Origin: a virus
DNA: 64,000 bases
Strand: one strand, 5' to 3'
IMG/VR virus record: IMGVR_UViG_3300045972_000807
Coordinates: 32,001 to 96,000 of that record
The position numbers were made by a program, and so were the translations under genes. Positions 24,609 to 58,799 of the stretch are shown piece after piece. Under the pieces are notes generated by a model that ran no database searches, was not told where the DNA came from, and saw nothing but the letters and a program-made list of their open reading frames with translations. Position 1 is the first letter of the stretch. Each line of letters starts with the position of its first letter.

Positions 24609-25850
24609 TTAAAACAAGCCCACGCCAGTAGCTAGCCAAGTTGTGGCGTTGACTCGCTTCATTAAGGTAGCTAAACCGTTGACTGCCAGCGTGCGCGTGC
24701 CAGTTGTAGCGGTGCCCACAAGCTTCATGGTGTCGGTAGTAACCGTGATCGTTATAGGCGAGGCAGACGTATTCAAAATCTGAATCACGGTACCAATTGG
24801 GAATGCCACGGCGCTGTTAGCTGGAATAGTGATGTTGCCCGATGCTTCTAGGCAGGTACCTCGGTCAGCTAAAGCTAGCGTGTACGCGCCTACTATTGTT
24901 TGGGGCACATCGCGTAGACGATCAACAAATGCTGTAGAAGCTATCGTAGTACCTGCGGTACCCCACACTTGAGTTGTGGTAGAGGTTACACTGATAGCTG
25001 CCGTACCTGCCAAGGTAATACGTCCTTTGCTGTCTACTTGAATCTGAGGAACGTGCGTAGCGTCACCGTAGTTACCGGCTGTAACGCCGGAGGCCGCTAG
25101 CGTAAGCGCGATAGTACCTGTACCTGAACCTGTGGCATCCCCTGTATAGGTGGTTGAAGGTGGCGTGGATGCTATAACGCTTAGCCCAGTTACACGTCCT
25201 TTGGCGTTAACCGTAATTTGAGGCGTGTTAGTAGCGTCTCCGTAGACACCTGGCGTAACACCTGTATTAGAAAGTGTAGTTGCTATTGTTCCGTTAGCCA
25301 ACGGAGTAGATGCTGCGGTAATGTCTCCGCTAAGTGCTAAGTTTACAGCACCAACATCGGCAATAGCCCGGGCTGCTGTGTAATATTTGTTTACCGTACC
25401 CTCAGTAAGGTTATCGGTGGTAGACCCAGACCAAGTACCTGTTGCTCCCTGAGGTCCTGTAGCTCCGGTTGCCCCGTTAGTCCCTATGTATCCGTTAGCT
25501 CCGGTGGGTCCTTGGGGCCCAGCTGGTCCGTCAATGCCTTGTAAACCTCGAGGGCCTGTAGCACCCGTAGCACCGTCTGACCCAACGTATCCGTTAGCGC
25601 CTGTGGGGCCTGTAGGTCCCTGAGAGCCAGTAGGGCCCTGTGGTCCCTGAATGCCAGGTATACCTTGGGGGCCTGCTGGGCCTGTTGGGCCTGTGGCCTG
25701 TTTAGCTGCCAAGTCTTGCTGAATGCCGTAGATGATACCGTCAAGCTGGACTAGGGCAGCCAGTACGGCGTCAATGTCGCCTAGACGGGCATCGTAAATT
25801 GTTCCGCCTGGTATAGGCATGTTCAAACGGGGTGTGGTACTAACGCTCAT
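24609..25850 (-). CDS. collagen-like fibre protein (paralogue of 43771-44814)
   Basis: Gly-X-Y run, two GVTxGxYG...GR repeats, and a C-terminal YTLALAD...[14 protein letters not shown]...W..TG.L fibre domain. Confidence 0.85.
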
Positions 25851-43770: not shown

Positions 43771-44814
43771 TTAGTTCAGGACAGCCAGGATCGTGAAGTC
43801 AACATCAGCCAAGGTAGCGTCAGGCGTAGCGGGAGCCACGATAGACAGCTTATCGCCAACGCTAAACACAATAGCCGCTTGCGTGGACAATGCACCAGTA
43901 GCACCAGCGGCAGCAAACGTAAACGTCGCAACCGTAGAGCCATTCTTTTGCAGGTTCCACACAGCACTGGCGGTTGCAGCAGTCTTTGCAGCCACAATAG
44001 AACCTGCGAGGTTTGCAGGGATTGTGAAGGCCCGGCCAGCTGTAAAGCGCAAATCCACTTGAGACGCTGCAGGCACGCCGAAGCATGAGCCTGTAATGTC
44101 GTTAGGCAGACCAGTCCAGGTTGTAACCGAAGCTGTAGACGTTACCGAAGAGCCGTCAGCGCCAGTAGCACCGGTTGCTCCTGTAGCGCCAGTAGCACCA
44201 TTGGTCCCATTGGTACCGTTGGTTCCCGTAGCGCCGGTGGGTCCAGTTGCGCCGTTGGTTCCATTAGTACCGTTAGTACCGTTAGCTCCTGTAGGTCCGG
44301 TCGGGCCAGCTACGGTTGACGCTGCGCCTGTAGCACCAGTGGGGCCTGTTGGGCCAACAGCAGTAGAGGCGGCACCGGTTGCGCCTGTGGCACCAGTAGC
44401 TCCTGTGGCACCGGTTGAGCCTGTGGCACCCGCCGCGCCGTTAGTACCTGCAGTACCGTTGGTACCTTGGGGACCAATGGGGCCTGCTGCGCCGTCGAAG
44501 CCTTGCAGGCCACGAGCACCTGTAGGACCTGCGGCGCCGTCGGCTCCTGCGGGGCCAGTTGGGCCTGTGGCTCCGTCAGCACCTTGGGGGCCTGTAGGGC
44601 CTTGAGGACCCTGAATACCGGGAACGCCTTGTGCGCCCGCCGCGCCTGTGGGACCAGTGCTCGACTTGGCTGCAACGTCTTGCTGCAAACCATAGATGAT
44701 ACTGTCCAGCTGGAACAATGCAGCTTGTGCTGCATCTATGTCACCCAGCCGAGTGTCATAGACTGTACCCCCTGGTAGAGGAAGGTGCAGGTTCGGGGTT
44801 GAACCTATGCTCAT
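43771..44814 (-). CDS. collagen-like fibre protein (paralogue of 24609-25850)
   Basis: AGGAG RBS before ATG 44814; N-terminal about 70 aa closely match the paralogue; Gly-X-Y run; C-terminal IPANLAGS...[19 protein letters not shown] beta domain. Confidence 0.85.
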
Positions 44815-44992
44815 AAATACTCCTAGTAGGAATGTGGATTTCGTTTCCGGCGCATGAGGATCAATTGCCGGGGGTAGGGGATCTGTGGTAACCGTTGGAG
44901 AGCTAACTATTTCTATACCCACATAATTTAGCGTGCTCGCAGTTACCTCGAAGCTTTTAACTTTAACCATAATTATGTGGCCCAGAAACAGG

Positions 44993-45026
44993 AAAGGCGC
45001 TGGTTGTTTTAGCAACCAGCGCCTTT
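44993..45026 (-). terminator. intrinsic terminator
   Basis: 14-bp stem AAAGGCGCTGGTTG/CAACCAGCGCCTTT followed by CCTGTTTC on the minus strand. Confidence 0.75.
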
Positions 45027-45056
45027 GTGCGTCACTTCACTACTGTCCCTCAGCCT

Positions 45057-45128
45057 TTAGGGCCAAGTTTGAGTAGGGCTAGCCCAGGTTTCGGTTGTGG
45101 AACCCCAGTTAGCTTGGATCGAAGCCAT
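45057..45128 (-). CDS. 23-aa Trp-periodic micro-protein MASIQANWGSTTETWASPTQTWP (not in ORF track)
   Basis: ATG lies 10 nt after the upstream stop with AGGGA just before it; TAA at 45057-45059; falls inside the transcript before the terminator; W every 7 residues. Confidence 0.6.
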   Translation of the reverse strand: MASIQANWGSTTETWASPTQTWP

Positions 45129-45138
45129 TGTCCCTACG

Positions 45139-47160
45139 TTAACGAAAATAGCTCACCAAGATCACATCGCCGACGAGCGGCGCTGTGTTCAAGGTGACTC
45201 CTGTTCCAGAAATTGTGTAGTCGTTGTCGCTGCCCATGTTTTGCAACACGCCGTTGACGTACAGTTGTTCTGTACCAGCGTGAGGTGTATTGGCCAGGAC
45301 GAACACAGCGTTGGTGCCATTGACGGTACCTGCTGGGATTTCGCGGACAACAACCTTGTCGTAGGTCAGATCGTTGGGCTGATCTTGTTCCAGCACATAC
45401 ACACGAGCAGCCAAGGCGGCTTCTGCGGCAGTAGCGCGGGCCAGTTCAGCACCTTCAGCAGCTGTAGCACGAGTCACTTCGGCGGCTACTGCATTGGTGT
45501 TCACCAATTCAGCGGCTGTGGCGCGCGAGGCTTCTGCGGCGATGGCTGTAGTCAGAGCGGACTCGGCAGCGGTAGCGCGAGCAGCTTCGTTCGACACCGA
45601 GGTGATGATCGGGCTGGTAGCTGAGGAGATAGCTGTGTCGCGGGCGGCGGCTTCGGCAGCAATCGCAGCTGTGTAGGCTGTGGTGATTGCAGCGTCGGCT
45701 GACGTACGGGCAGAAGCTTCAGCAGTAACGGCAGTGTTCCACAGTGCGTTGTCTGCGGCGATGGCCGTAGTGTAGGCAGTGGTGATCGAACCTTCGGCAG
45801 CGGTTGCACGGGTTGTTTCAGCACCAATGCTGGTACCCAGGGCAGCTTCAGCGGCCAGTGCGCGAGCCAGTTCAGTTGCATCGGCAGCAGCGAAGGCTGT
45901 GGAGATGGAACCTTCAGCGGCTGTAGCACGAGTCACTTCAGCAGCAACGGCTGTAGTCAGTGTGCCTTCGGCGGCAGTAGCACGTGAGGCTTCAGCTGCA
46001 ACAGCCGCGGTGAACGCGGTAGTAACAGCGGCGTCGCCAGCGATGCGTGCTGTAGCTTCGGAGTCGATGTTGCCTTGCAACACGCCTTCGGCGGCAGTTG
46101 CACGAGTCACTTCACCGGCCAGGTTGGTGGTCAGTGTGCCTTCAGCAGCAGTTGCACGGGTAACTTCAGCGGAAACAGCCGAGGTCAGAACGCCTTCAGC
46201 AGCAGTAGCGCGGGATGCTTCAGCAGCAACAGCGGCAATGCGGGCATTGGCTTCGGACGTGTCAGCGTTGGTGCGGGCCAGAACTTCGGCAGCCAGTGCA
46301 TCGGCAGCAGCTGTAACAGCAGCAGCTTCGGCAGCGGTAGCGCGAGTTGTTTCAGCGTCGGTGTAGGCAGCGGCAGCAGCAGCGATGGCCGTTTCAGCAG
46401 CAGTAGCACGTGTGACTTCAGTTGCCAGGTTTGCAGCAGTAGCCGAGGTACCAGCGAGTGCGGTGATGTTGGCTTGCAGCGTAGCTTCAGCAGCTGTAGC
46501 ACGAGTCACTTCGGCGCTGTCAGCGGACTGATAGGCAGAGGTGATGGCGCTTTCAGCGGCTTGGGCACGTGTGGACTCGGTCGTGATGGCCGTGGCGTTG
46601 TTGCCGTTGGCGGTGGACAGCGCAGCTTCAGCGGCCGTAGCGCGTGTAACTTCAGCAGCGATGCTGGTGTTCAGAGCGGATTCGGCAGCAGTTGCACGGG
46701 TGATTTCAGAGGCCAGGGCATCGGCAGATGAAGTGCTTGCAACGATCGCGGAGATCTGTGATTGCAAACCGGCTTCAGCTGTAGACGCACGCGATGCTTC
46801 AGCGGCCAGTGCTGTGTCCAGGGCCACGTCTGCTGTGAACAGAGAAGTAGCTGCGCCCAGGTAGTTGCTGTTGGTGGGGGCAACGTAAGCACCACCGGTG
46901 GTCAGGCCAGCGCCGGTCAGGGTGCCAGTGATCAGGCTTTGGATGGCAGTTGTAATGCTGCTGTCCGATGCTTCCCAAGCTTGGGTAGCGGCGTTGATGG
47001 AAGCTACGGTAGCCTCATCAGTTGCCAAGGTCGTGAAGATGTTCGCAATGTTGGTGCTGAGACCAGACAGGTATGCCTGGAACGCTGCATCAATTGCGGA
47101 CTGTGGAACGGAAGCAGTGCGTATCTGCGAGCCATTGATTGTGGTAGGGGTAGCTGCCAT
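45139..47160 (-). CDS. coiled-coil fibre protein with ExxRAxAAE repeats and small C-terminal Ig-like domain
   Basis: About 20 (A)EVTRATAAE-type repeats; C-terminus VNGTNAVFVLANTP...LYVNGVLQ...DYTISG...GDVILVSY; GGAG RBS. Confidence 0.85.
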   Translation of the reverse strand: MAATPTTINGSQIRTASVPQSAIDAAFQAYLSGLSTNIANIFTTLATDEATVASINAATQAWEASDSSITTAIQSLITGTLTGAGLTTGGAYVAPTNSNYLGAATSLFTADVALDTALAAEASRASTAEAGLQSQISAIVASTSSADALASEITRATAAESALNTSIAAEVTRATAAEAALSTANGNNATAITTESTRAQAAESAITSAYQSADSAEVTRATAAEATLQANITALAGTSATAANLATEVTRATAAETAIAAAAAAYTDAETTRATAAEAAAVTAAADALAAEVLARTNADTSEANARIAAVAAEASRATAAEGVLTSAVSAEVTRATAAEGTLTTNLAGEVTRATAAEGVLQGNIDSEATARIAGDAAVTTAFTAAVAAEASRATAAEGTLTTAVAAEVTRATAAEGSISTAFAAADATELARALAAEAALGTSIGAETTRATAAEGSITTAYTTAIAADNALWNTAVTAEASARTSADAAITTAYTAAIAAEAAARDTAISSATSPIITSVSNEAARATAAESALTTAIAAEASRATAAELVNTNAVAAEVTRATAAEGAELARATAAEAALAARVYVLEQDQPNDLTYDKVVVREIPAGTVNGTNAVFVLANTPHAGTEQLYVNGVLQNMGSDNDYTISGTGVTLNTAPLVGDVILVSYFR

Positions 47161-47228
47161 GATGGATATTTCTCCGGGGGTTGAATTAAACTAACACACT
47201 AACAAAAAGAGTATCTTTGCAAAGACGT

Positions 47229-47918
47229 TCAATACGTGTACTCCACTATAACATTGTCAAAGGAATCCGGGTTAAAGTAATTATTTTGCCAGCCGATTGT
47301 TGCCCCAGCTATGAGGAAGTCTCCGCCGTAAGTGTACCGTATACCGTTTATCCAGATGACCACGCTAGGTGGGTCCAATGGGGTGTGAAGCAATTGCTTA
47401 TTACTAAGCCCTGTTTCACTTATTGCTATAAGCTCCTGAGTTTTAGTTCCGGTGGCTGGCGTTATTGTGCCAGCCACCGCATCCAAAATGTTACGCTCAT
47501 CAACAGCAAAGGCCTCAGCCGTATTGCCTGTGACAAGCTCGGTGTACACTGCGTCTGAGGGCAGCATACCTAGTTTGAGGTTTGGGGTTACCTGAGCCAA
47601 TAGACAAGCTGTTGAGTTGGTTACCGCGTCAACCTCGTCACCTGGTTCGTCCCATAAAATTGTACCACTTAAGGTACTCTGGTCTATGGGGGTAGCAGCC
47701 GTTAAGACGTATCTATGGAAGATACCTGGTATCTGCATGAACGTATTAACGTCGCTTGCAGGTATGTAAAGAACAAACCCAGGTGTAACGTCGTAGGCAC
47801 CGTTACCGGTAGCATCAGCTTGGTTAGAGAACTGGGCTGATTCAAATGTGTATTCTCCAGCGTTTCCAGTAGGCGTAAAGGCGCTGACTGTTAAAGCTGC
47901 ATTTATTGGACGCGCCAT
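47229..47918 (-). CDS. two-domain putative fibre adaptor (paralogue of 51310-52152 N-domain)
   Basis: RPINA...GNAGEY.F...NQADATGNGA N-domain; C-domain resembles the C-domain of 45139-47160. Confidence 0.75.
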   Translation of the reverse strand: MARPINAALTVSAFTPTGNAGEYTFESAQFSNQADATGNGAYDVTPGFVLYIPASDVNTFMQIPGIFHRYVLTAATPIDQSTLSGTILWDEPGDEVDAVTNSTACLLAQVTPNLKLGMLPSDAVYTELVTGNTAEAFAVDERNILDAVAGTITPATGTKTQELIAISETGLSNKQLLHTPLDPPSVVIWINGIRYTYGGDFLIAGATIGWQNNYFNPDSFDNVIVEYTY

Positions 47919-47930
47919 TACATTCAACCT

Positions 47931-49022
47931 TTAGAAGGACATTAGGAATACGATACCTGTCGTGCTTGCGGGCAAGGCGCCATACTGGAACATATTCCAG
48001 CTTGTACCACTTACCACAGCTATCGTGTTGCCCACAGCGCTAAGGCTAACACCATCTTGGCGAACCTGTTGGACTGGAACTATAGCGTTGTCAAAGCTAC
48101 TCCATGCGCCAGTGGGCTGGACTGGTATTGTCAAATTGTACGAGGTACCTGTGCGAGTGCCAGTTGCCAAGTGAATACGCATACCCAGCAACGTTATGTT
48201 GCTAACACCAGCAGGTGCGGTTAAGATACCTGCATTGATGTTGTTAACACCAGAGGCATTATGGGCAAAGGTGTAGCCCATAGAGTACGCTGCAGCTGTA
48301 CCCGAAGAACCACCAGTACCGCTGGAAGTAATTGTGAAAGTATTGGTAGTTACCGCGGTGATTAGACCGTTCTGAAACTCCACGTTAGCGTTGTGGACGA
48401 TAACCATCTCGCCGACAGAGTGACCGTGACCGTTGTCAGTGATAACCAGGTTTGTGCTGGTTTGTGCCCACGAAAGGCCGGTGGTAACGGGGGCGCTAGT
48501 GGCAACCCACACGGATTGACCTGTTGTGGTGTTGACTGGATAGCGGCAGGTTGTATCGTAAACCTTAGATACGCCACCGCCAGTGCCGCCAGATGCGCTA
48601 ATAGTGCCGTCACCTGCGATAGTAACGCCGGTACCCTGCTTTACGCCGCCCAGTACAGATGAGCTTGCAACAGGCAAGGTGTACGCTGAGGGGATAGAGG
48701 GTGTACCTGACAGATCGCTATAGGCGCCGGATAAGGCAACCGCAGCCAGGCTGGAGGTATTGGCTTTACCAGAAATTGCCGTAGCAACCTGCGCGGCTGT
48801 CTGGTAGCCAGCGTCATTGGTAAAGCCTGAGATAACAGTCGGTACTACGACCGCTGTAGTTTGAACGGAGTTGTCAGAAAACTTAACGCCTGAAGAGCCA
48901 GCAATTAGCTGTGCAGCTTTGAACGAGCCGGGCGTTGACAGCGCATTGGCACCTTCGCGCAATAGCTCTGTGTCAGTGCCAAAGTGTATGTGATTTCTCG
49001 CGTTGTCAATTATTATGGACAT
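47931..49022 (-). CDS. short fibre protein whose C-terminal domain is paralogous to that of the collagen protein 52171-55911
   Basis: FTNDAGY, SGAYSDL and LGGVK.G.G..I repeats, then an about 210-aa shared domain. Start moved to ATG 49022, downstream of the hairpin. Confidence 0.8.
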   Translation of the reverse strand: MSIIIDNARNHIHFGTDTELLREGANALSTPGSFKAAQLIAGSSGVKFSDNSVQTTAVVVPTVISGFTNDAGYQTAAQVATAISGKANTSSLAAVALSGAYSDLSGTPSIPSAYTLPVASSSVLGGVKQGTGVTIAGDGTISASGGTGGGVSKVYDTTCRYPVNTTTGQSVWVATSAPVTTGLSWAQTSTNLVITDNGHGHSVGEMVIVHNANVEFQNGLITAVTTNTFTITSSGTGGSSGTAAAYSMGYTFAHNASGVNNINAGILTAPAGVSNITLLGMRIHLATGTRTGTSYNLTIPVQPTGAWSSFDNAIVPVQQVRQDGVSLSAVGNTIAVVSGTSWNMFQYGALPASTTGIVFLMSF

Positions 49023-49053
49023 TGCTTGGTCGCCCTTCAAATCTTTAATAGAA

Positions 49054-49082
49054 GGGCCGGTGAATAAAATAAACACCGGCCC
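49054..49082 (-). terminator. terminator-like hairpin after 49105-51288
   Basis: GGGCCGGTG...CACCGGCCC followed by TTCTATT on the minus strand. Confidence 0.65.
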
Positions 49083-49104
49083 CGACGTAACCCACTAGCG
49101 TTGA

Positions 49105-51288
49105 TTAGACGATAGTGGTAGTTTTGATGCCAACAACCCAGGTGATCGAAGTTGCAGCAGCGCCTTGCACAGTGATGGCCAGACCGCTACCATCGGTAGA
49201 CGCATTTGCATCCCACGAGGTGTCTTCCAGGGCGATGATGTCTTTCAACACACTGCCGCCGACGATGCTGATAGTGCCTGCAACGTTCTTGATAGCGCCT
49301 TCGAGTGTGAAAGCACCAACCAATGCGCCGCCAGCTGTCTTGCCAACTACGTCAGCAGTGAACTGCACCACGGCGCCTGAGGCCACGGCCACGGTCAGAG
49401 CAGAAGTTGCAGTAGCGTCGGTTGTAGGCACTGTAGCCACGGCAGTACGAGTACCAGAGCCGCCGGCCAGCAGAGTTGCACCAGTCACGCTCAGGACACC
49501 AGCACCGTCAACAGCCAGACCAGAACCTACCTTCACACCGCCCAGCACCGAGGCAGTAGCCACGGGCACAGCAGTCAGGTAACCTGCGTCGTTGGTGAAC
49601 GCTGACACCACGGTAGGTACGGTCGGAATGGTGGGAGCACCAGACAGATCAGCGTATGCACCAGTGGTTGCCACAGTAGCCAGTGAGGCTGTAGTAGCGT
49701 AGGCGGCCAGGGCGGAGGTCAGGACGTAGCTGGACAGCGAAGCGGTCGTGGCGTACGAAGACAGAGCCGAGGTCAGAGCGTAGGGAGCCAGTGCGGTAGC
49801 AACGTTGCCAGCAGTTTGATAACCAGCGTCGTTGGTGAACGAAGACACGGTTGTGGGGACTGTCGGGATCGTTGGGGTACCGGTCAGGTCAGCGTATGAG
49901 CCTGACAGAGCAACAGCAGCCAAGCTGGAAGTGTCAGCCTTGCCAGCGATTGCGGTAGACACATTGGCAGCGGTCTGGTAGCCAGCGTCGTTGGTGAACA
50001 CGGACACCAGAGTCGGGATCGTCGGGATCGTCGGTGCGCCAATCAAAGCACTGTAAGCGCCGGAGAACGCAACAGCAGCCAGGTCAGCAGTGTTTGCCTT
50101 GAAGGCAACAGCAGTGGTCAGCGCAGCAGCTGCAGACTCGTCAGCAGCCAGGGCCGTTGCGATTTCAGCCAGTGTATCCAGTGCCGTAGGAGCAGCGCCT
50201 ACAACAGCAGCGATTGCGGCGGTGACTTGAGCAGCAGTCTGGTAGGTGGAGTCATTGGTGAACGCGCTAACGTTGGTAGGCACGGTCGGGATTGTGGGCT
50301 TGTTAATCAGGTCAGAGTACGAACCTGAAGTAGCCACGGTAGCCAGGGCGGTAGCGTCCACCTTGCCAGCGATTGCTGTAGCAACGTTTGCTGCGGTTTG
50401 GTAACCGGAGTCATTGGTGAAAGCAGAAACCACGGTAGGAACCGTGGGGATTGTGGGCAGGCCCAACAGGTCGGAGTACTGGCCAGATGTAGCCACTGTA
50501 GCCAGTGACGACGTTGTAGCGTAAGCGCCCAGGGACACCACAGTAGCGTAGGCGGCCAACGAAGCGTTGGTAGCGTATGCCGACAGGGAAGACGTTGTGG
50601 CGTAAGCCGACAGGGAAGCGATCGTTGCGTAGTCACCCAGAGCAGTAACCACTTGAGCGCTGGTCTGATAGCCGGCGTCGTTGGTGAATGCGCTCACCAC
50701 TGTAGGTACGGTCGGGATCGAAGGCTTGTTGCTCAGGTCGGTGTAGGAACCTGTAGTTGCCACTGTAGCCAATGCCGAGCTGAGAGCGTATCCAGCGTCA
50801 TTGGTGAAAGCAGAAACCACGGTAGGAACCGTGGGGATCGAAGGCTTGCCGGTCAGGTCAGAGTACACGCCGGAGAACGCAACAGGTGCCAGAGCAGAGG
50901 CGTCAACCTTGCCAGCAACAGACGTTGTCAGCGCAGCAGCAGCGGATTCATCGGCAGCCAGGGCAGCAGCGATTTCAGCCAGAGTGTCCAGTGCTGTAGG
51001 AGCAGCGCCTACAACAGCAGCAATCGCTGCGTCCACAGTGCTTGTCACATTGGCAGCAGTTTGGTAGCCAACGTCATTGGCGAAGTCACTGACCTTGGTC
51101 GGCACAGTAACGACGGTGGGAGTAACGAGATCCAAGCCACCCGAAGATGTATTGAACGCGAGCACTTGGCCGTTTTGCGCGGACGTGGTGTCCGGAAAAA
51201 CGATAGTACCAACGCCAGATGCGGGGCCACGCAGTACCAAGCCACCGGCTGTGCCAGCATTGTCAAGAACGATACCTTTGATTGTCAT
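49105..51288 (-). CDS. tail-fibre stalk protein with PTIPTVPTxVSxFTNDAGY / LATVATSGSYSDL repeats
   Basis: About 8 FxNDxxY repeats, two GAAPTALDTLAEIA modules and a C-terminal beta domain; GGAG RBS. Confidence 0.85.
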   Translation of the reverse strand: MTIKGIVLDNAGTAGGLVLRGPASGVGTIVFPDTTSAQNGQVLAFNTSSGGLDLVTPTVVTVPTKVSDFANDVGYQTAANVTSTVDAAIAAVVGAAPTALDTLAEIAAALAADESAAAALTTSVAGKVDASALAPVAFSGVYSDLTGKPSIPTVPTVVSAFTNDAGYALSSALATVATTGSYTDLSNKPSIPTVPTVVSAFTNDAGYQTSAQVVTALGDYATIASLSAYATTSSLSAYATNASLAAYATVVSLGAYATTSSLATVATSGQYSDLLGLPTIPTVPTVVSAFTNDSGYQTAANVATAIAGKVDATALATVATSGSYSDLINKPTIPTVPTNVSAFTNDSTYQTAAQVTAAIAAVVGAAPTALDTLAEIATALAADESAAAALTTAVAFKANTADLAAVAFSGAYSALIGAPTIPTIPTLVSVFTNDAGYQTAANVSTAIAGKADTSSLAAVALSGSYADLTGTPTIPTVPTTVSSFTNDAGYQTAGNVATALAPYALTSALSSYATTASLSSYVLTSALAAYATTASLATVATTGAYADLSGAPTIPTVPTVVSAFTNDAGYLTAVPVATASVLGGVKVGSGLAVDGAGVLSVTGATLLAGGSGTRTAVATVPTTDATATSALTVAVASGAVVQFTADVVGKTAGGALVGAFTLEGAIKNVAGTISIVGGSVLKDIIALEDTSWDANASTDGSGLAITVQGAAATSITWVVGIKTTTIV

Positions 51289-51309
51289 ATAGACTCCGAG
51301 TTAAGGCAG

Positions 51310-52152
51310 TTAAGCCGTGAAAATTGTCAGCGTAGTTGATGCTGACCAGTTGAGGGAAGTTGCGGAAGATCCAGTTACCTGAATATCGAGAGCGCCTGTA
51401 GCTGCATTGGCTGAGGCCTGCGCGTCCCAGCTCGTATTAGAGCGCGCCACTATAGTTGTTAGGGTGTTGCCCATAAGGGCTAGTGTATTCAAATTGTCAT
51501 CCATGTAGAGCGTACCTTCGATGATAAAGATACAACGCTGATTAGGCGCGCCTGCTCTGTGGCCTACTACTATGGTGCGGAAAACAGCAGTGCTCAAACT
51601 GGGCAAAGTCAAATCTTGAACGGGACCCAGGGTAAGCGGTGTTGCGTTGGTTGTGGAACCTGAGACGTCTATAGTCGTAGTTACAAGACCCCCGCCCCCG
51701 CCACCCAGGCCAATGTTGTCAGTAACATCCCTAGAGTCCAACACCATAGCCTGGATGTCGGAACCGCTAGGCAAGTTGGCATACACAGCGTTGCTGGGAA
51801 CAAGGCTAAGCCCATGGTTGGGCGTAGCCTGCGCTAGCATTACATAGGCGCCACTAGACGGAATGTCTACCTCAGCAGTAGGCTCATCCCACAGCATAGT
51901 TCCGCTCAAGAGACTGGCACCTGTTGGGCTTACTGAGGTAAGCTTGTATCGGTGCATGGCTCCTGATACAGGACTGCCAGTGTTAACGTCTGTGGGCTGG
52001 ACATAGACTTTGCAGCCTATGGTAATGTCCGCCGCGCCGTTGCCTGTGGCATCCGCTTGGTTGTCAAAGTTAGCGTCAGTGAAGGAATACTCGCCTGCGT
52101 TCCCAGTACCTACGAACGAACTAACGAATAGGGTTGCGTTTATTGGCCGCAT
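51310..52152 (-). CDS. two-domain putative fibre adaptor
   Basis: N-domain paralogous to 47229-47918; poly-Gly linker; C-domain resembles the C-domain of 49105-51288. Confidence 0.75.
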   Translation of the reverse strand: MRPINATLFVSSFVGTGNAGEYSFTDANFDNQADATGNGAADITIGCKVYVQPTDVNTGSPVSGAMHRYKLTSVSPTGASLLSGTMLWDEPTAEVDIPSSGAYVMLAQATPNHGLSLVPSNAVYANLPSGSDIQAMVLDSRDVTDNIGLGGGGGGLVTTTIDVSGSTTNATPLTLGPVQDLTLPSLSTAVFRTIVVGHRAGAPNQRCIFIIEGTLYMDDNLNTLALMGNTLTTIVARSNTSWDAQASANAATGALDIQVTGSSATSLNWSASTTLTIFTA

Positions 52153-52170
52153 TTATAGCATCCTTACTGA

Positions 52171-55100
52171 TTAGAAGTTAGCCAGGATAACGATGCCAGT
52201 TGCGGACGCTGGAAGCGCCCCAAACTGGAACGCCGCGAAGCTACCACTGATTGATGTTGCAATGGTGTTACCCACTGCGCTGAGAGTAGTACCGTCCTGC
52301 CGAATTTGCTGGACTGGAATCCATACGTCATCCATGCTTGTGTCTCCACCAGCACCGTTAAGGATGCCAGCCGGGACATTCAGCGTGTAGGTTGTACCTG
52401 TCCGTGTGCCTGTTGCCAGGTGAATACGGACACCCATGAGCTGAATGTCTGCACCTGCAGTAGCTGGGGCGCTTATTGTGCCTCCGCTAATAGAACCAGA
52501 AGGTCCGTTATGTGCAAACGTGAAGCCCATCGTGTAGTTACAGCTAAAGCCCATTGCGGCTCCTGCACCGCTACTGGTAACCGTAAACGTATTTGCAGTA
52601 ACCGAGGTAATCAACGCTACTTGGTAATCCACATTGGCATTACGGATGATAGCCAGATCGCCTACCGAGTGACCGTGAGCGTTGTAGGTCAGAGTAAGTG
52701 CTGTACCTACCTGAGCCCACTGCACACCCACACGAATCTGAGAAGCACTGGTAACTGAGACAGCAAGTCCCGTAGTGGTCAGAACCTGATAGCGCGACAC
52801 AGTATTGTGGATAACGCCGATCATTGCTCCGCCAGGTCCCTGTGCTCCGTCTGCTCCAGTAGCACCGGTTGCACCTGTGGGGCCTGCTACGGTTGAGGCC
52901 GCACCAGTAGCACCGGTTGGTCCTGCTGGGCCAGTAGAGCCTGTTGGACCTGCTGGACCTGCTGGTCCAGGTACTGTAGACGCCGCGCCTGTTGGGCCGT
53001 TTGCACCAGTAGGCCCAACAGGACCTGCTACGGTTGAAGCGGCACCTTGGGGTCCTGTAGCACCTGTGGGTCCTGCTACACCTTGAGGTCCAGGTACTGT
53101 AGAGTTTGCACCTTGGGGTCCAGTAGGACCTGCAGGGCCGGGTACTGTTGAGGTTGGGCCTGTGGCTCCCGTTGGACCTACGGTACCTTGGGCTCCCGTA
53201 GGACCTGTGGGACCTGCTGACCCTTGAAGACCTGCGGGTCCAGTGGGTCCAACGATAGCGCCTACGTCTACCCAGGCTGAGCCACTCCAAGTGTACAGGT
53301 TACCGTCAGCTGCAACCACGTATGAGTCGTTAGTTGCCTGTCCGGTAGAAGGCAAACTAGCTACAGTAGCTACAGTTCCCTTCATGTTTATGCCCACACC
53401 CGCAGGGCCTTGGGCGCCAGTGGGTCCTGCTACGCCAGTTGTACCTGTTGCTCCGTTTGCGCCTGTGGGTCCAGCGGGGCCCGCAGAACCAGTATTGCCA
53501 GTTGGGCCTGTAGGTCCTGCGACACCAGTAGTTCCCTGGATACCCTGAGAACCTGTGGGGCCAACCGCTCCAGTGCTACCGGTTGCACCTGTAGGACCAG
53601 CTACGCCAGCTGAGCCTTGGGCACCGGTGGGGCCTGCAGGGCCAGCTGGGCCGGCAGAACCTGTAGGGCCAGCAACCAAGCTAGCAGCACCTGTCGCGCC
53701 TGTTGGTCCAGCGGGGCCAGTAGCACCGGAGGGACCTGCGACACCAGTAGTACCCTGGATACCTTGGGCGCCAGTAGCACCCGTCGGGCCTACAATAGCG
53801 CCTACGTCTGTCCAAGCTGAGCCTGTCCACGAGTACAGGTGTCCGTTAGCCGACACCACGTAGGCGTCGTTAACAGCTGAGCCTGTTGCTGGAAGAGCAC
53901 CAACCGTCGCTACAGTACCTTTCAGGTTTATGCCAATGCCAGCTATACCTTGTGAGCCTGTGGCACCAGTGGGGCCAGCAACGCCGGACACACCTTGTGA
54001 GCCTGTAGCACCAGTAGGTCCGGTTGAGCCTGTGGGTCCTGCTACAGTGGACGCCGCGCCAGTAGCACCTGTGGGGCCGGTCGGGCCAGTGTTACCAATA
54101 GGTCCTTGAGCACCTTGAGCTCCAGCAGGTCCTTGCGAACCAGACGTGCCTGTTGCACCTGTAGCACCGTTTGCACCTGTGAAGCCGATAGGGCCTACAG
54201 CGCCTTGAGGACCTGTTGCGCCTACAGAGCCTGTAGCGCCTGTTGGTCCAGCAACGCCAGTGGTTCCCTGCGCGCCAGTAGCTCCCGTTGGGCCGGCTAT
54301 ACCTTGTGCGCCAGTAGCTCCAGCAACGCCTTGAATACCTTGGGCGCCGCCGTTACCTTGCAGACCCTGAATGCCTTGTGAGCCGGCAGGGCCTGTAGAA
54401 CCTGTGGGGCCTGCAACGCCTTGCGAACCAGCAGGTCCCTGAGCGCCAGTAGGGCCAACCGAACCTTGGGGACCCTGGATTAGGCCAACGTCAATCCAGC
54501 CAGCTCCATTCCACGAGTACAGGTGTCCGTTAGCGTTAACGACATACGCATCGCTTTGGGTAGCCGTTGTGGGCAGGTTAGCTGTTGTGGCTACGTTACC
54601 CTTCAGGTTGATACCAATACCTGCAGAACCTTGGATACCTTGTGCTCCAGTAGCGCCTGTTGGTCCAGCAACGCCAGTGGTTCCCTGCGCGCCAGTAGCG
54701 CCAGTAGGCCCAACGTTACCTTGGATACCTTGGATACCTTGAGTACCTTGTGTACCCATAGGGCCCAGGCCACCAACAGGTCCAGTTGCGCCAGTGGGGC
54801 CTGTAGGTCCCTGAGAGCCAGTGTTTCCTTGAATACCTTGGAGGCCTTGCAAGCCTTGTGGGCCTTGATTACCCTGAGGTCCAACCACAGTAGACGCCGC
54901 GCCGGTTGCACCAGTAGCTCCCTTAGGACCTGTGGCACCTGCAACTCCAGGCACACCTTGAGGACCTTCAACGGTACTGTCAGCGCCTTGAGGACCTTGA
55001 GGACCTGTTGGTCCCATTAGGCCTTCGCTGCCTGGAGCACCAGTGGGTCCAACAGTACCGGGCTGCATTGGCACCACGAGCGACTCAGCAAAGAACGTCG

Positions 55101-55911
55101 CAATGTCGCCGTTCTCGAACAGGTTGTTCCACGGTGCTGTGGTCTTGAAGTGGTAGCAGTCAGTAACCACGCCGTCAACACGATACAGGACGGTACCAAC
55201 CATCGAGCATGTGCGAGCGATACCGGCATTTGCACCGGTACGTGGAGTGACAAAGAATGAGATTGTGCGATCTACCTTGGACAGCGCGCCTAGGCTAGCA
55301 CTGTTTACAGGTATGTAGATGCTGGTGAAGTCTGACGCTGCGATAGTCAAATCGCCCAGGTTGTAGGAACCTGCGAGACGCCAAGAGCTACCGTCGGACA
55401 CTGCGATCAGGGACTTGCCTGAGATCACATAGGTATTTGTAATACCTGTTTCCTGAGTGTACGTCGTAGAGTCCGCCGCGTTAGGCAGTGCGTCAACAGA
55501 CGGCAGGACGTTCAGGTTACCGGCCGCAGCTGAGAGGGCCACCGGGGAGAACGGTGCGCGACCGCCTGCCTGCATAGGCAAGATACAAGCAACAGAAACG
55601 TTGTCTGTAATAGGAATGTCGGAATCGGACGAACCCAGTGCGACGCAGACGCCGTTAAAGTACAGTCCGATCTCGCCCATTACGATAGCTGGGCTACCGA
55701 GGCCGTGAGAGATTGAAACGGAAAAGGACGGAGAGCCTCCGTCCATTCCTGTCAAGGGCGCTTGTCCGTAATAGACTTTAGCTCCGTGAATGTCAGTGTC
55801 GTTACTTGTGGCTATATAGCCACTGGCATTGCCGACCGCGAAGTCCAGGCTGCTTGGCACGCCCGTAGTAGCGAACAACTGATAGCCGTAATTGGTTAGT
55901 GCGAAAAGCAT
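52171..55911 (-). CDS. long collagen-like tail fibre with putative N-terminal baseplate-anchor domain (1246 aa)
   Basis: About 750 aa of Gly-X-Y interrupted by three GINxKG...W.DVG.I.GP knots. The N-terminus (LTNYG...FAVG...GEIGLY) resembles myophage fibre anchor domains. Confidence 0.85.
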
Positions 55912-55982
55912 AGTAGGGCGTGCCTTTGTCGAAGATGAATTAAGGGCGCCCTAAGGCGCTCAAGATAAAATTGTTTAGAGTT

Positions 55983-58799
55983 TCAGAACTCTATTGGTGG
56001 AGGTGGAGTTAGATAACTTATTGTTCCGTTAGTTTTATAGGCATAGATTGAAGTACCGTCCCAGTAACAGGGTCCTGCAGGTGGAGAATCCGAACCGTGG
56101 GACATAGGGAACCAAGATAGACCGTCATCATAGGAATAGGCTCCCAAGGTTAGGCCGGTAACAACAAAGCACTTATTCCCAAATCCCAGTCCATTGTAGG
56201 TTGTAAGAGCCTTGGTTTGCGACCAGGTGTTAGACGGGGTATAGTAGGTGTGAATACCTGCACTGCTAACAGCTACGCCGTTAACTTCTCCTAGACAGAA
56301 GTCAAACGTTGTTCCGCCCTGTACCGTATTCGGACCCGAAGTCCAGTTTGCACCGTCGTCAAAAGAAATTATGCAAGAGTCATAAGCATAGATGTAGTTG
56401 TAATCCATGAACCAGGTGTTGTTACCCAGGTACCGTGTGTTACCGCTTCCACCCCAGACGCCGTTACCTAATGGGCTATTAGCTGGAACAGGAAGAAGGT
56501 TCCAGGTTACACCGCCGTCGGTCGACCTATGGGCACCCATAGTGTTTATTACCTGGCGGCCCCAGCTGTCTCCCGAAACCAACACGTTAGTAGTAGGATT
56601 ATAGTCTATGGAGTTACGCAATGGCGTAGAGTAGTTAGACCCAAGGACCTTGCTGGTCCAGATAAAGCCATCTGTGGAGTAGTACATCGTGCCTTGGGAC
56701 TTTACGTTGTACTGCCCAGAGTTGGTGATAGCCCAGCTTGTTACCTCATAGCCGAAATATCTTGGCTCCCATGTTTTACCGTCGTCAGTAGACTTTAAGG
56801 CGCATATAGCGTTACCAGAGTACATAACCCCGGCAGCGTCCCTACGCATACCAACCATGTGAACAGGTTGAAGCATAGCGTCGGTGTGCCAAGTTACGGC
56901 GTCATCTGACCAAACTCTAAAGCTTGTAGCAACTTGAAAAGAAAGATGGAACCTGCCTTGCGGAGTACAGGTTATGAAGTAGGGAATGCCTGAGCAAGGT
57001 ACCTTAACGGTTGTCCAGGTTACACCCATGTCGTCGGTGTACGCTATGCTTGTCCCAAGCTGAGCCGCACCGGCTGCGACTAAACCTACTACTCGGCTCC
57101 CATTGCTGGCAAAATCTGAAAATATAGCCAATGGGGTTACACGCTTTGTCCACGTTAAGCCGTCAGGAGAGACAATGACCTCCTTGGTGTTAGTGGTCAT
57201 TATGTAATAGGTACCTGTCCAGATGTGGTACCCGCCAGCCGCGCCTACCCCGGTTGGGAACGTAACTTTATTCCAGTTAACTCCGTCTGCGGAATACACA
57301 ATATGGCCAGCACCGGTGGCAAGGAACTGGCTACCGTTCCAGGATAGTCCCCGGAAGTTAGCTGCGGCTGCGGGAGTCTTGGCTACGTTCTTTATCCAGG
57401 TAAACCCACCGTCTTGTGAACAGTCAATAAACCCGGAGTTTCCGCCCAAAACTACCGTACCACCCACACCTGCACCACAGTAAACCTGGACCGCCGTAAA
57501 GCTACTGCCAGTAAGAGTTGGCGATGATACCGTAGTCTGAACATCGTAGTACCAGTCCAGACCGTTATAGGTCATGAATAGCTTGGTAGCAGTGGTAAAC
57601 AAGGCAGTGAAGGCTCCACAATCCCAAAGCTTATATGTCGCAGGAGCACTGAATACTGTGGTACCGCAATTCCACCAGGTGTCTCCTCCATTATTGGAGT
57701 AGAACATTTTGTTGGATATGTTGTAGGCAAATAGACCTAGACTTGTTGCCGTTACGCTGTGCAGATTAGAGCAGGACCCTGTAGTTAGGTCAAGTGCTGG
57801 AGTGGACTTGGTTATTTCCCAGTTTAGACCTTGGTCGGGAGAACGGCCAAAATAATAAGACTTGGCGTGACCAAAAATCCAGTTTCCGTCTGAGCAGTAC
57901 ATGGTGTATGCTTCAGGATACTTGGATAAGTCTCTTGTCCAGTTTGCACCGTCAGGAGAAGTGAATCGCTTCCCGCCGAAGTTAACTACAAACTGCGAAC
58001 CTGTCCAGCAGCCTGGCGTAGGCTGTGAAGGACCTGTGCCATCGCCACCCGCCGCTACGAGACCGGTAGAGGCCCCGGTCCAAGTAACTCCGCCGTCCTG
58101 AGTTGAAAACCAGTACCCACCGGAGATGGTCATAAATACGGCTTGCCCAGCATTGTTGGTAAGAAATCCAGCTACGGCATTCCCAACGTTAAAGATACCT
58201 GCGTAGGCAAAGTTCTTTAGGACCCATGTCGTCCCATTAAAGGTCAAGGTGTCCAGTATGTACGAGGTACCTGACCTGCCGTAGCCGTAAAAGGCAAATA
58301 CTGAACCAGCGCCGCACCAAGCCACGCCGGTATAGGTTCGAGTGCCGTACTGGTTATTTATACCAGTGAAGCCAATAAAGTCTGTGGTTGCGTACGACTT
58401 GAAATAACCCATAAACATATAGGTATTACCATCGTAGGCCACACCCAACAATTGGGTATTGGCTGTGTCCGGCATAACTATTCTTTTCCATGTAACCGTA
58501 TCTGTGGAGTACATGGCAAACTGGGTTGTAGTAGTGCCGTCGCTTTCGCTACCTACAACTATCCAACCCCAACCCACCCAGAGAACCTGAGTTAGCATAG
58601 AACCCAAGGTGGCTATTGTGGGTATAGCGTCCCAGGTTAATCCGTCGGAGGACAAGCGCACGGTACCATGGTTACCCACAGCTAAGCCGTACCCGGGTCC
58701 CCAAGCCATGCTCTTTATTAACTCTAGAGAATGCTTTTGGTACCACACCGGGGGATTACGAGATTTGCCGTAGTAAGGTTCTACAAGTAGCTTGGACAT
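55983..58799 (-). CDS. BNR/Asp-box repeat beta-propeller protein (sialidase-like fold), putative receptor-binding protein
   Basis: Many SxDGxxW repeats (SSDGLTW, SPDGANW, STDDGKTW, STDGGVTW). ATG 58799 overlaps the upstream TAA (TAATG). Confidence 0.85.
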   Translation of the reverse strand: MSKLLVEPYYGKSRNPPVWYQKHSLELIKSMAWGPGYGLAVGNHGTVRLSSDGLTWDAIPTIATLGSMLTQVLWVGWGWIVVGSESDGTTTTQFAMYSTDTVTWKRIVMPDTANTQLLGVAYDGNTYMFMGYFKSYATTDFIGFTGINNQYGTRTYTGVAWCGAGSVFAFYGYGRSGTSYILDTLTFNGTTWVLKNFAYAGIFNVGNAVAGFLTNNAGQAVFMTISGGYWFSTQDGGVTWTGASTGLVAAGGDGTGPSQPTPGCWTGSQFVVNFGGKRFTSPDGANWTRDLSKYPEAYTMYCSDGNWIFGHAKSYYFGRSPDQGLNWEITKSTPALDLTTGSCSNLHSVTATSLGLFAYNISNKMFYSNNGGDTWWNCGTTVFSAPATYKLWDCGAFTALFTTATKLFMTYNGLDWYYDVQTTVSSPTLTGSSFTAVQVYCGAGVGGTVVLGGNSGFIDCSQDGGFTWIKNVAKTPAAAANFRGLSWNGSQFLATGAGHIVYSADGVNWNKVTFPTGVGAAGGYHIWTGTYYIMTTNTKEVIVSPDGLTWTKRVTPLAIFSDFASNGSRVVGLVAAGAAQLGTSIAYTDDMGVTWTTVKVPCSGIPYFITCTPQGRFHLSFQVATSFRVWSDDAVTWHTDAMLQPVHMVGMRRDAAGVMYSGNAICALKSTDDGKTWEPRYFGYEVTSWAITNSGQYNVKSQGTMYYSTDGFIWTSKVLGSNYSTPLRNSIDYNPTTNVLVSGDSWGRQVINTMGAHRSTDGGVTWNLLPVPANSPLGNGVWGGSGNTRYLGNNTWFMDYNYIYAYDSCIISFDDGANWTSGPNTVQGGTTFDFCLGEVNGVAVSSAGIHTYYTPSNTWSQTKALTTYNGLGFGNKCFVVTGLTLGAYSYDDGLSWFPMSHGSDSPPAGPCYWDGTSIYAYKTNGTISYLTPPPPIEF

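Follow-up and report, generated by a model that had tools for sequence, protein, structure and literature searches.

In a 64,000-nucleotide (nt) stretch of viral DNA (hereafter the window; bases 32001-96000 of the IMG/VR virus record IMGVR_UViG_3300045972_000807), we identified two protein domains, X and Y, that very probably form a reusable joint between tail fibre segments, in which the C-terminal end of one fibre protein would meet the N-terminal start of the protein encoded next. The pair occurs twice within a block of six consecutive genes on the minus strand, whose products we named P0001 to P0006 in transcription order. Among the loci that we collected from other genomes, a gene ending in X lies directly before a gene starting with Y in approximately 65 evaluable junctions (about 30 of them distinct), with no exception to this order. 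A preliminary description of the window, made from its letters alone, had arranged the six genes into two triplets with the same domain logic. Our analysis confirmed this arrangement in part: the relationships between the two copies of X, between the two copies of Y and between one of two pairs of additional domains (Z1 and Z1') are well supported, but the relationship between the other additional pair (Z2 and Z2') is weak and the stalks of the proteins are not all unrelated.

An open reading frame (ORF) check confirmed the six genes as genuine minus-strand reading frames at the coordinates given, and the ATG starts chosen for two of them (47931-49022 and 47229-47918) agree with those of their orthologues. 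The first triplet begins with P0001 (52171-55911), a 1246 amino acid (aa) protein with an N-terminal domain, a long collagen-like stalk with three interruptions and a C-terminal X domain of about 212 aa (residues ~1035-1246; 52174-52809), the latter delimited by its homology to X' and by a structural model and proposed as the socket or knob at the C-terminal end of the fibre. The stalk matches the Pfam collagen triple-helix repeat PF01391 in 11 stretches (E = 1.4e-67; 223.7 bits against a cut-off of 27.2). P0001 also matches tail-fibre PHROGs, and the stalks of the block match generic fibre PHROGs only. P0002 (51310-52152; 280 aa), delineated by BLASTP, alignments and a model, is composed of an N-terminal Y domain, the proposed plug (residues 1-148; 51709-52152), followed by Z1 (residues 156-280; 51313-51687), a jelly-roll-like beta sandwich according to its structural match to the C-terminal domain of T4 gp9. 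P0003 (49105-51288; 727 aa; BLASTP and PHROGs) harbors a short N-terminal domain, a stalk of FTNDAGY repeats and a C-terminal paralogue of Z1 (Z1'; 49108-49476), assigned by Smith-Waterman comparison and a tree.

The second triplet begins with P0004 (47931-49022; 363 aa), in which BLASTP and orthologues delimit an N-terminal domain, approximately 1.5 FTNDAGY repeats and a C-terminal X' domain (47934-48569). It continues with P0005 (47229-47918; 229 aa), which BLASTP and alignments divide into Y' (47475-47918) and Z2 (47232-47471), and ends with P0006 (45139-47160; 673 aa), a protein with an ExxRAxAAE coiled-coil stalk and a C-terminal Z2' domain (approximately 45142-45366) assigned by profile comparison. 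In both triplets the Y gene follows the X gene closely, with the P0002 start located 18 nt past the P0001 stop and the P0005 start 12 nt past the P0004 stop, and both Y genes have their own AAGG-type ribosome-binding site (AAGGA in the case of P0002).

BLASTP comparison among the six proteins established three of the proposed relationships. X and X' are paralogues (P0001 942-1246 against P0004 79-381; 45% identity over 310 aa, E = 2.7e-58), as are Y and Y' (P0002 2-147 against P0005 6-151; 51% identity over 146 aa, E = 4.5e-48), and Z1 and Z1' are homologues (P0002 191-269 against P0003 643-717; 36% over 80 aa, E = 1.2e-6). Every X, Y and Z motif on which the triplets were originally drawn was seen in our alignments. 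The fourth relationship, between Z2 and Z2', was not recovered in pairwise comparisons (BLAST E = 5; Smith-Waterman P = 0.07) but appeared weakly by profile (hhalign E = 4e-4, probability 34%), when a profile of five Y-linked Z2-like domains was aligned to the end of P0006 over an NG...G-D-[FY]-x-I-x-G core. Adding an intermediate sequence from other loci on each side gave E = 1.2e-7, a value driven in part by the clearly homologous Z4/Z4' pair included among those sequences, and we regard the profile evidence for a Z2/Z2' relation as suggestive. The isolated end domain of P0006 approaches DUF4183 (PF13799; E = 5.9e-4, 20 bits, below the cut-off of 25.1), and Z2 of P0005 has no match to this family. 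As for the stalks, which had been described as unrelated throughout, P0004 and P0003 have the same FTNDAGY-type repeats (E = 6e-21, BLASTP), and by this comparison P0004 looks like a shortened P0003 in which X' replaces Z1'.

To evaluate the order of X and Y, we gathered junction loci with Y, X or full-length Y proteins as queries. Each of the 11 viral loci obtained with Y has an X-ending gene directly upstream. Conversely, X is followed by a Y gene, as the preliminary description predicted, in 13 of 13 viral loci found through X, including two that the Y search had missed. In the metagenome, we found 38 occurrences of Y in 37 loci; two are located at contig ends, and each of the 36 evaluable ones has an X gene upstream. 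The gap between the two genes is 3-37 nt in 35 of these junctions and 550 nt in one, where an insert with a terminator-like hairpin lies between the X and Y genes (L068:5446-5994). The same order is present in the assembly loci L005, L031, L032, L034, L042 and L043. Three distant X homologues were also evaluated: downstream of the first lies a clear Y-like domain that begins after an extension of 100 aa (hidden Markov model (HMM) E = 5.5e-23), downstream of the second a remote one (hhalign E = 3.8e-6, probability 87%), and downstream of the third a protein without detectable likeness to Y.

The architecture of the Y proteins points in the same direction. They form a continuum of lengths from 220 to 2561 aa, and Y heads fibres of 570-2561 aa, several of which have collagen-like repeats in common with the preceding X-bearing gene. 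Proteins that start with Y and end with X also exist, and in L015/L016 and L031 they form chains of the type [..X][Y..X][Y..], the architecture that would be expected of an extender in a serial chain and one that a chaperone would hardly have. In addition, the identity matrices of X and Y correlate over 18 pairs (r = 0.37; Mantel test, 9/5000 permutations), and one X-Y subgroup among these pairs is defined by both partners; we take the correlation as weak support because shared ancestry contributes to it. Overall, the rule that Y follows X is as strong as comparative genomics allows. The proposal that X and Y are a reusable plug and socket is thus sustained by an order that holds in all evaluable loci, by the long fibres headed by Y and by the Y...X extenders, but the physical interface itself is inferred; on this genomic evidence, we consider it likely that X and Y bind.

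Our searches indicate that X and Y are undescribed domain families. Neither has a match in Pfam, in PHROGs or, by profile search, among PDB sequences, and neither the whole region (megablast) nor X and Y (tblastn) had a match in 50,697 deposited (cultured) phage records. Single-sequence scans of viral contigs also returned nothing, alignments being needed for detection. An exhaustive profile search recovered 364 clusters at 50% identity for the X family with E ≤ 1e-3 (122 with E ≤ 1e-30), from proteins of ~220 to >2000 aa; in nearly all the matches listed the match reaches the last residues of the protein, and X is therefore a C-terminal end domain. Homologues of Y were drawn from a set of 5.8 billion proteins, from viral contigs and from metagenome contigs, and in this main survey Y is N-terminal in every protein that bears it. 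In one distant relative (L035:3388-4920), ~100 additional N-terminal residues stand before the Y-like domain, so Y does not stand strictly at the chain start in all lineages.

X and Y are both large, folded and strongly conserved domains (mean column identity 56-63%), and the invariant final Phe of X and the first residues of Y (M-x-R-P-I-N) are among their best conserved positions, which suggests that both termini contribute to the proposed contact. The predicted structure of X is all-beta (predicted local distance difference test (pLDDT) 84; predicted template modelling score (pTM) 0.80). Foldseek and VIA searches with this model found no convincing solved relative for the whole domain: residues 28-102 correspond to a common small beta-barrel sub-domain with a match in the phi92 endosialidase (Z = 8.9), and the sole whole-domain fold match is an uncharacterised protein of an uncultured phage in BFVD (template modelling score 0.88). 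With respect to Peptidase S74 (PF13884), P0001 and P0004 have no Pfam match outside the collagen stalk, and X has no PDB sequence match. The small beta-barrel part of X (profile positions 39-90) is also present in 19 copies in P0166, a protein of 4855 aa.

A further regularity concerns the second domain of the short Y proteins, which had been proposed to match the end domain of the next fibre. This holds in approximately 12 of 17 distinct evaluable loci and for at least four Z types, but it is not universal (L018/L048 and L019 depart from it). Z1 matches the C-terminus of the next fibre in the window (Smith-Waterman P = 1.9e-6, a score reached by none of 500 shuffles), in L005 (P = 8.6e-8) and in L056 (P = 1.7e-8); in L042 and L043 it aligns with the end of the next fibre and groups in the Z1/Z1' tree. 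Corresponding matches were found for Z3 in L034, L051 and L053 (E = 3e-15; P down to 3e-16), for Z4 in L032 (43% identity, E = 3e-12), for a Z2-type domain in L068 (P = 9e-4) and for an Ig-like domain, Z2*, in L005 (P = 0.0016); in L031 and L054 the likeness of Z2* is by eye only. In L010, where the Y gene is at a contig end, a scan of weak sensitivity found no second Z2*-type copy in the record.

The complete six-gene arrangement is kept in four further diverged phages (L005, L042, L043 and L056), whose Y domains are ~45-57% identical to those of the window. In L056, a gene encoding a 238-aa basic protein, possibly homing-endonuclease-like, is inserted between the Y-Z1 gene and its stalk gene (L056:2955-3671). 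Comparison of the window with L005, L042 and L043 showed that Z2 (window and L042) and Z2* (L005 and L043) occupy the same position, and that the N-terminus of the following coiled-coil protein differs between the same two groups. The C-terminal domain of that protein differs likewise between the window and L005 (it is cut off in L042 and L043), and Y and the ExxRAxAAE repeats are kept throughout. In a tree of Z1-type domains, all Z1' sequences fall in a clade of their own (support 100/99). Concerted evolution of Z1 and Z1' was rejected on this basis, and the pair is therefore an old duplication that has persisted side by side and did not arise by recent gene conversion. Of the two domains, Z1' is the slower to change (42-67% identity, compared with 27-44% for Z1). 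Z1 diverges about as fast as Y between close relatives and faster than Y over greater distances, and it is not hypervariable. As judged from these comparisons, the matching of Z domains is frequent and evolutionarily maintained.

Taken together, we propose that the six genes encode segmented tail fibres whose pieces would be joined non-covalently in gene order, the C-terminal end domain of one to the N-terminal start domain of the next. X would be an all-beta knob of ~210 aa that ends one trimeric fibre and Y a domain of ~150 aa that starts the next protein; the X-Y joint would be used twice in the block (P0001 to P0002 and P0004 to P0005), and elsewhere it would couple long fibres and Y...X extender pieces. 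Both Y proteins of the window are short, and each has a single additional domain (Z1 or Z2), taken as an old paralogue of the domain that ends the fibre encoded next (P0003 or P0006). We prefer, tentatively, to read the short Y-Z proteins as adaptors: Z would receive, as a socket, the N-terminal strand of the following fibre, and its resemblance to Z' would follow from both taking up plugs of one type. This would produce one or two serial fibres (P0001-P0002-P0003, then P0004-P0005-P0006), and further copies of P0003 and P0006 could attach to the Z' ends of these same proteins. Domain homologies, the positions of domains in proteins and synteny are observations, and every physical contact in this explanation is deduced from them; as a whole, with the adaptor function included, the explanation may be correct, and we put it forward as provisional.

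We favour the adaptor function for several reasons. First, Z, the next N-terminus and, where available, the next C-terminus covary between lineages, and Z lies immediately before the next N-terminus in the coding order, like X before Y. Second, L005 has a triplet without Y (L005:16531-19395; proteins of 130, 544 and 265 aa) that conforms to a logic of anchor, extender and tip: the 130- and 544-aa proteins are homologous at their ends (44% identity, E = 2.5e-25), and the 544- and 265-aa proteins at their starts (P = 8e-7). Third, P0003-type and P0004-type proteins have a common N-terminal motif, I-x-[LI]-[DNE]-N-[AS], in all five genomes with the six-gene arrangement, and among 1184 N-termini tested this motif, defined post hoc, is restricted to these two families, which may indicate a common plug. 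The N-terminus of neither P0003 nor P0006 was found in any other protein of the 172-kb record, and the N-termini of P0006 and of P0007, a collagen fibre encoded downstream of the block, are not significantly alike.

Finally, Z1 best matches the C-terminal domain of T4 gp9, a coaxial fibre attachment site, and may therefore be a socket. The model of P0002 (pLDDT 65) has two beta domains connected by a low-confidence linker that contains a helix, and within its Z1 part (pLDDT ~65-80) the best structural match is to this gp9 domain, an eight-stranded beta sandwich at gp9 residues 170-285 (VIA Z = 10.5; root-mean-square deviation 2.8 over 111 residues; 6% identity). Tailspike end domains score almost as high (Z = 8.7-10). 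Fibre gp42 of Klebsiella phage Kp9 matches through its end domain (Z = 10.0), a gp9-like baseplate chain of a Klebsiella phage reaches Z = 9.4, and Acinetobacter tailspikes match at Z = 6.5-8.7.

Several observations weigh against an adaptor function, and several would be expected if the short Y-Z proteins were instead plug-on tips, a possible alternative. Here X-Y would still be a joint, and each short Y-Z protein would be the distal end-piece of its own fibre (P0001 with P0002, P0004 with P0005). P0003 and P0006 would be separate fibres anchored elsewhere, and Z and Z' would belong to the same class of receptor-binding or trimerising end domains, the neighbour's end domain having been copied once long ago and both copies kept. 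In agreement with this, Z-type domains match the C-terminal ends of annotated tail-fibre and virion-protein families and tailspike end domains, as distal tips do, and the modelled Z1 fold, while compatible with a socket, is equally that of ordinary distal domains. In L018/L048, the Z domain is a 155-aa domain that matches the C-terminus of the tail-fibre family phrog_22284, like an ordinary fibre tip, and is unlike the next protein; in L019, Z has no match and the next gene is on the other strand. An ordinary 693-aa fibre of a small unrelated phage contig ends in a Z1'-type domain (L047:4264-6345; HMM E = 3e-17), and no X, Y or upstream Z1 was found in that 12-kb locus.

The continuous range of Y protein lengths also agrees with tips, and adjacent fibre genes in these phages often have common C-terminal domains even where Y is absent. 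The common N-terminal motif of P0003 and P0004 was defined after the sequences had been seen, and it may reflect common descent, as the two proteins are partial paralogues. Past the first dozen or so residues their N-terminal domains are not significantly alike, and homology of the whole N-terminal domains, which would have established a chain, was rejected (P > 0.05 in the window, 0.03 in L005). What plug-on tips leave unexplained, on the other hand, is the pairing of each of at least four unrelated Z types with the fibre gene immediately following, and the joint replacement of Z, the next N-terminus and the C-terminus between lineages; the persistence of Z1 and Z1' as ancient paralogues side by side without homogenisation also counts against them.

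The remaining explanations fare worse. The homology and covariation of Z and Z' could also arise if the Z trimer of a Y protein bound the homologous Z' trimer of the next fibre tip to tip, joining the fibres end to end in opposite polarity or in a loop. These two features are all that speaks for such coupling, which would leave the N-termini of P0003 and P0006 free, would not explain why the stalk N-terminus changes together with Z and has, to our knowledge, no precedent among phage fibres; we consider it improbable. Small proteins that are encoded right after a fibre gene and bind the C-terminal end of the fibre are known, such as Tfa of lambda and Mu and gp38 of T2. The tight coupling of the Y-Z genes to the fibre gene immediately upstream would fit an assembly chaperone or an adhesin of this type for the X-bearing fibre. 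However, Y-Z proteins have no Pfam, PHROG or PDB sequence match to chaperone families, Y has no Pfam or PHROGs match to the Tfa and gp38 families, and the same Y is the first domain of collagen-like and other fibres of 570-2561 aa, unlike a chaperone, which makes this role very improbable. Equally remote is the explanation that X and Y make no contact and mark a conserved recombination boundary: fibre loci are mosaic and the evidence presented here is all genomic, but large, folded and conserved domains at fixed protein ends across very different stalks, in an order without exception, argue against it.

An extended form of the preferred explanation places all six proteins in one serial appendage on a single baseplate-anchored collagen fibre, with three orthogonal joints (X::Y, Z1::N-terminal strand and Z2::N-terminal domain) and with P0003 and P0006 adding onto themselves, so that parts of the appendage would be polymeric and of variable length. 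We regard this form as rather unlikely; if true, phages would possess a natural and reusable kit for constructing fibres.

Segmented fibres with docking ends are already known, and what is new here is the X-Y pair itself, its reuse and its wide distribution in uncultured phages. In the long tail fibre of T4, the proteins gp34-gp35-gp36-gp37, encoded by consecutive genes, are linked serially in the order of their genes, the C-terminal end of one meeting the piece that follows (PMC5537660), and the C-terminal domain of gp9 is a coaxial socket for the long tail fibres (PMC3004832). The gene order and the terminal positions of the domains in our block fit a putative joining of the same kind, C-terminal end to N-terminal end. 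The proteins of the block have no sequence relation to gp34-37 or gp9 in Pfam, PHROGs or PDB profile comparisons. Moreover, each joint of the T4 fibre is used once, one of them being a monomeric hinge, whereas X-Y recurs in one genome, extends to hundreds of protein clusters and is also borne by the Y...X extenders.

A closer parallel to the adaptor function is found in the neck fibre of the Anabaena myophage A-1(L), gp82-(gp81)n-gp80, in which the C-terminal (second) domain of the anchor gp82 resembles the body of the extender gp81 and the three proteins are present at a ratio of 1:14:1 (Yu et al., 2024; PMC10966104). Approximately 14 gp81 trimers form a head-to-tail chain via their N-terminal hairpins, with gp80 as its cap, as shown experimentally (PMC10966104). 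P0002 with P0003 and P0004, as well as the 130-, 544- and 265-aa triplet of L005, follow the same anchor, extender and tip pattern, and the homology between the distal domain of the anchor and the end domain of the extender is reproduced by Z1 and Z1' in the window, L005 and L056. The idea that Y-Z proteins nucleate or co-assemble with the Z-bearing fibre thus has a precedent in A-1(L), and a plug-on end-piece would fit our data about equally well. There are also differences: the protein families are unrelated, the extenders considered here are long stalks of 450-730 aa and not beads, the proposed chain would hang from the end of another fibre through X-Y, and P0003 or P0006 may or may not be present in multiple copies.

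Modular, transferable docking that places several fibres or spikes on one particle is also described for branched receptor-binding protein (RBP) complexes such as CBA120 TSP1-4, the KP32-type RBP1/RBP2 of Klebsiella phages, RaK2/phiK64-1 and phiKp24 (PMC8825819; PMC13352976; PMC10253068; PMC9700779). These complexes dock by N-terminal anchor or branching domains and by short conserved peptides close to the virion, which produces branches, whereas in our case the proposed socket is the distal, C-terminal end of a fibre, which would give serial extension.

The X-Y pair would add a further joint to this picture: one cognate domain pair marks it in hundreds of protein clusters from uncultured large phages, linking collagen, beta-repeat and coiled-coil stalks. 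Until now, segmented and branched fibres have been known from a handful of model phages, with idiosyncratic joints of which few are recognisable from sequence. If the proposed contact is true, multi-gene fibres could be read directly from metagenomic sequence, and X-Y would offer a small, transferable link with which to engineer phage host range or to build protein fibres of defined composition. In turn, the matched Z domains raise the question of whether some phage fibres grow by the repeated addition of long subunits on a primer, as the neck fibre of A-1(L) does with beads.

Regarding the setting of the block, the source record comprises 171,756 bases with a CheckV completeness estimate of 65%, so the source is a very large (giant), uncultured phage. 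All genes in the part of the window around the block are on the minus strand, and the block belongs to a long virion module that also encodes a head-tail connector, collagen-like fibres and two giant proteins of 3080 and 2829 aa. A strong hairpin terminator of 14 pairs after P0006 (44993-45026, minus strand) closes the block, and a hairpin scan also revealed a weak terminator-like hairpin between the triplets, after P0003 (49073-49088, minus strand; six pairs with a T-rich tail). The two are compatible with two three-gene units, and the total number of terminator-like hairpins in the region is not above the count in shuffled sequence. An identical 18-nt hairpin plus tail is found twice in the interior of P0003 (50817-50834 and 50430-50447), which is explained by near-identical DNA copies of the stalk repeat unit.

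Neither ribosome-binding sites nor the GC content of third codon positions (GC3) single out P0003 and P0006 as highly expressed major subunits. The GC content is 54-58% across the fibre block (44001-56000), compared with 49-51% in the flanks; because GC3 is not raised (0.44-0.57), this shift comes mainly from Gly/Ala/Thr-rich coding and not from a foreign origin.

A second repeated pattern is located downstream of the block (23664-44814, minus strand). There, P0007, which probably starts at 44814, and a 413-aa protein (24609-25850) are collagen fibres whose N-termini are alike by eye (unscored). The 3080-, 2829- and 311-aa proteins that follow these two fibres have a common C-terminal domain (P = 6e-9 to 5e-12), and the 3080- and 2829-aa giants also have N-termini in common.

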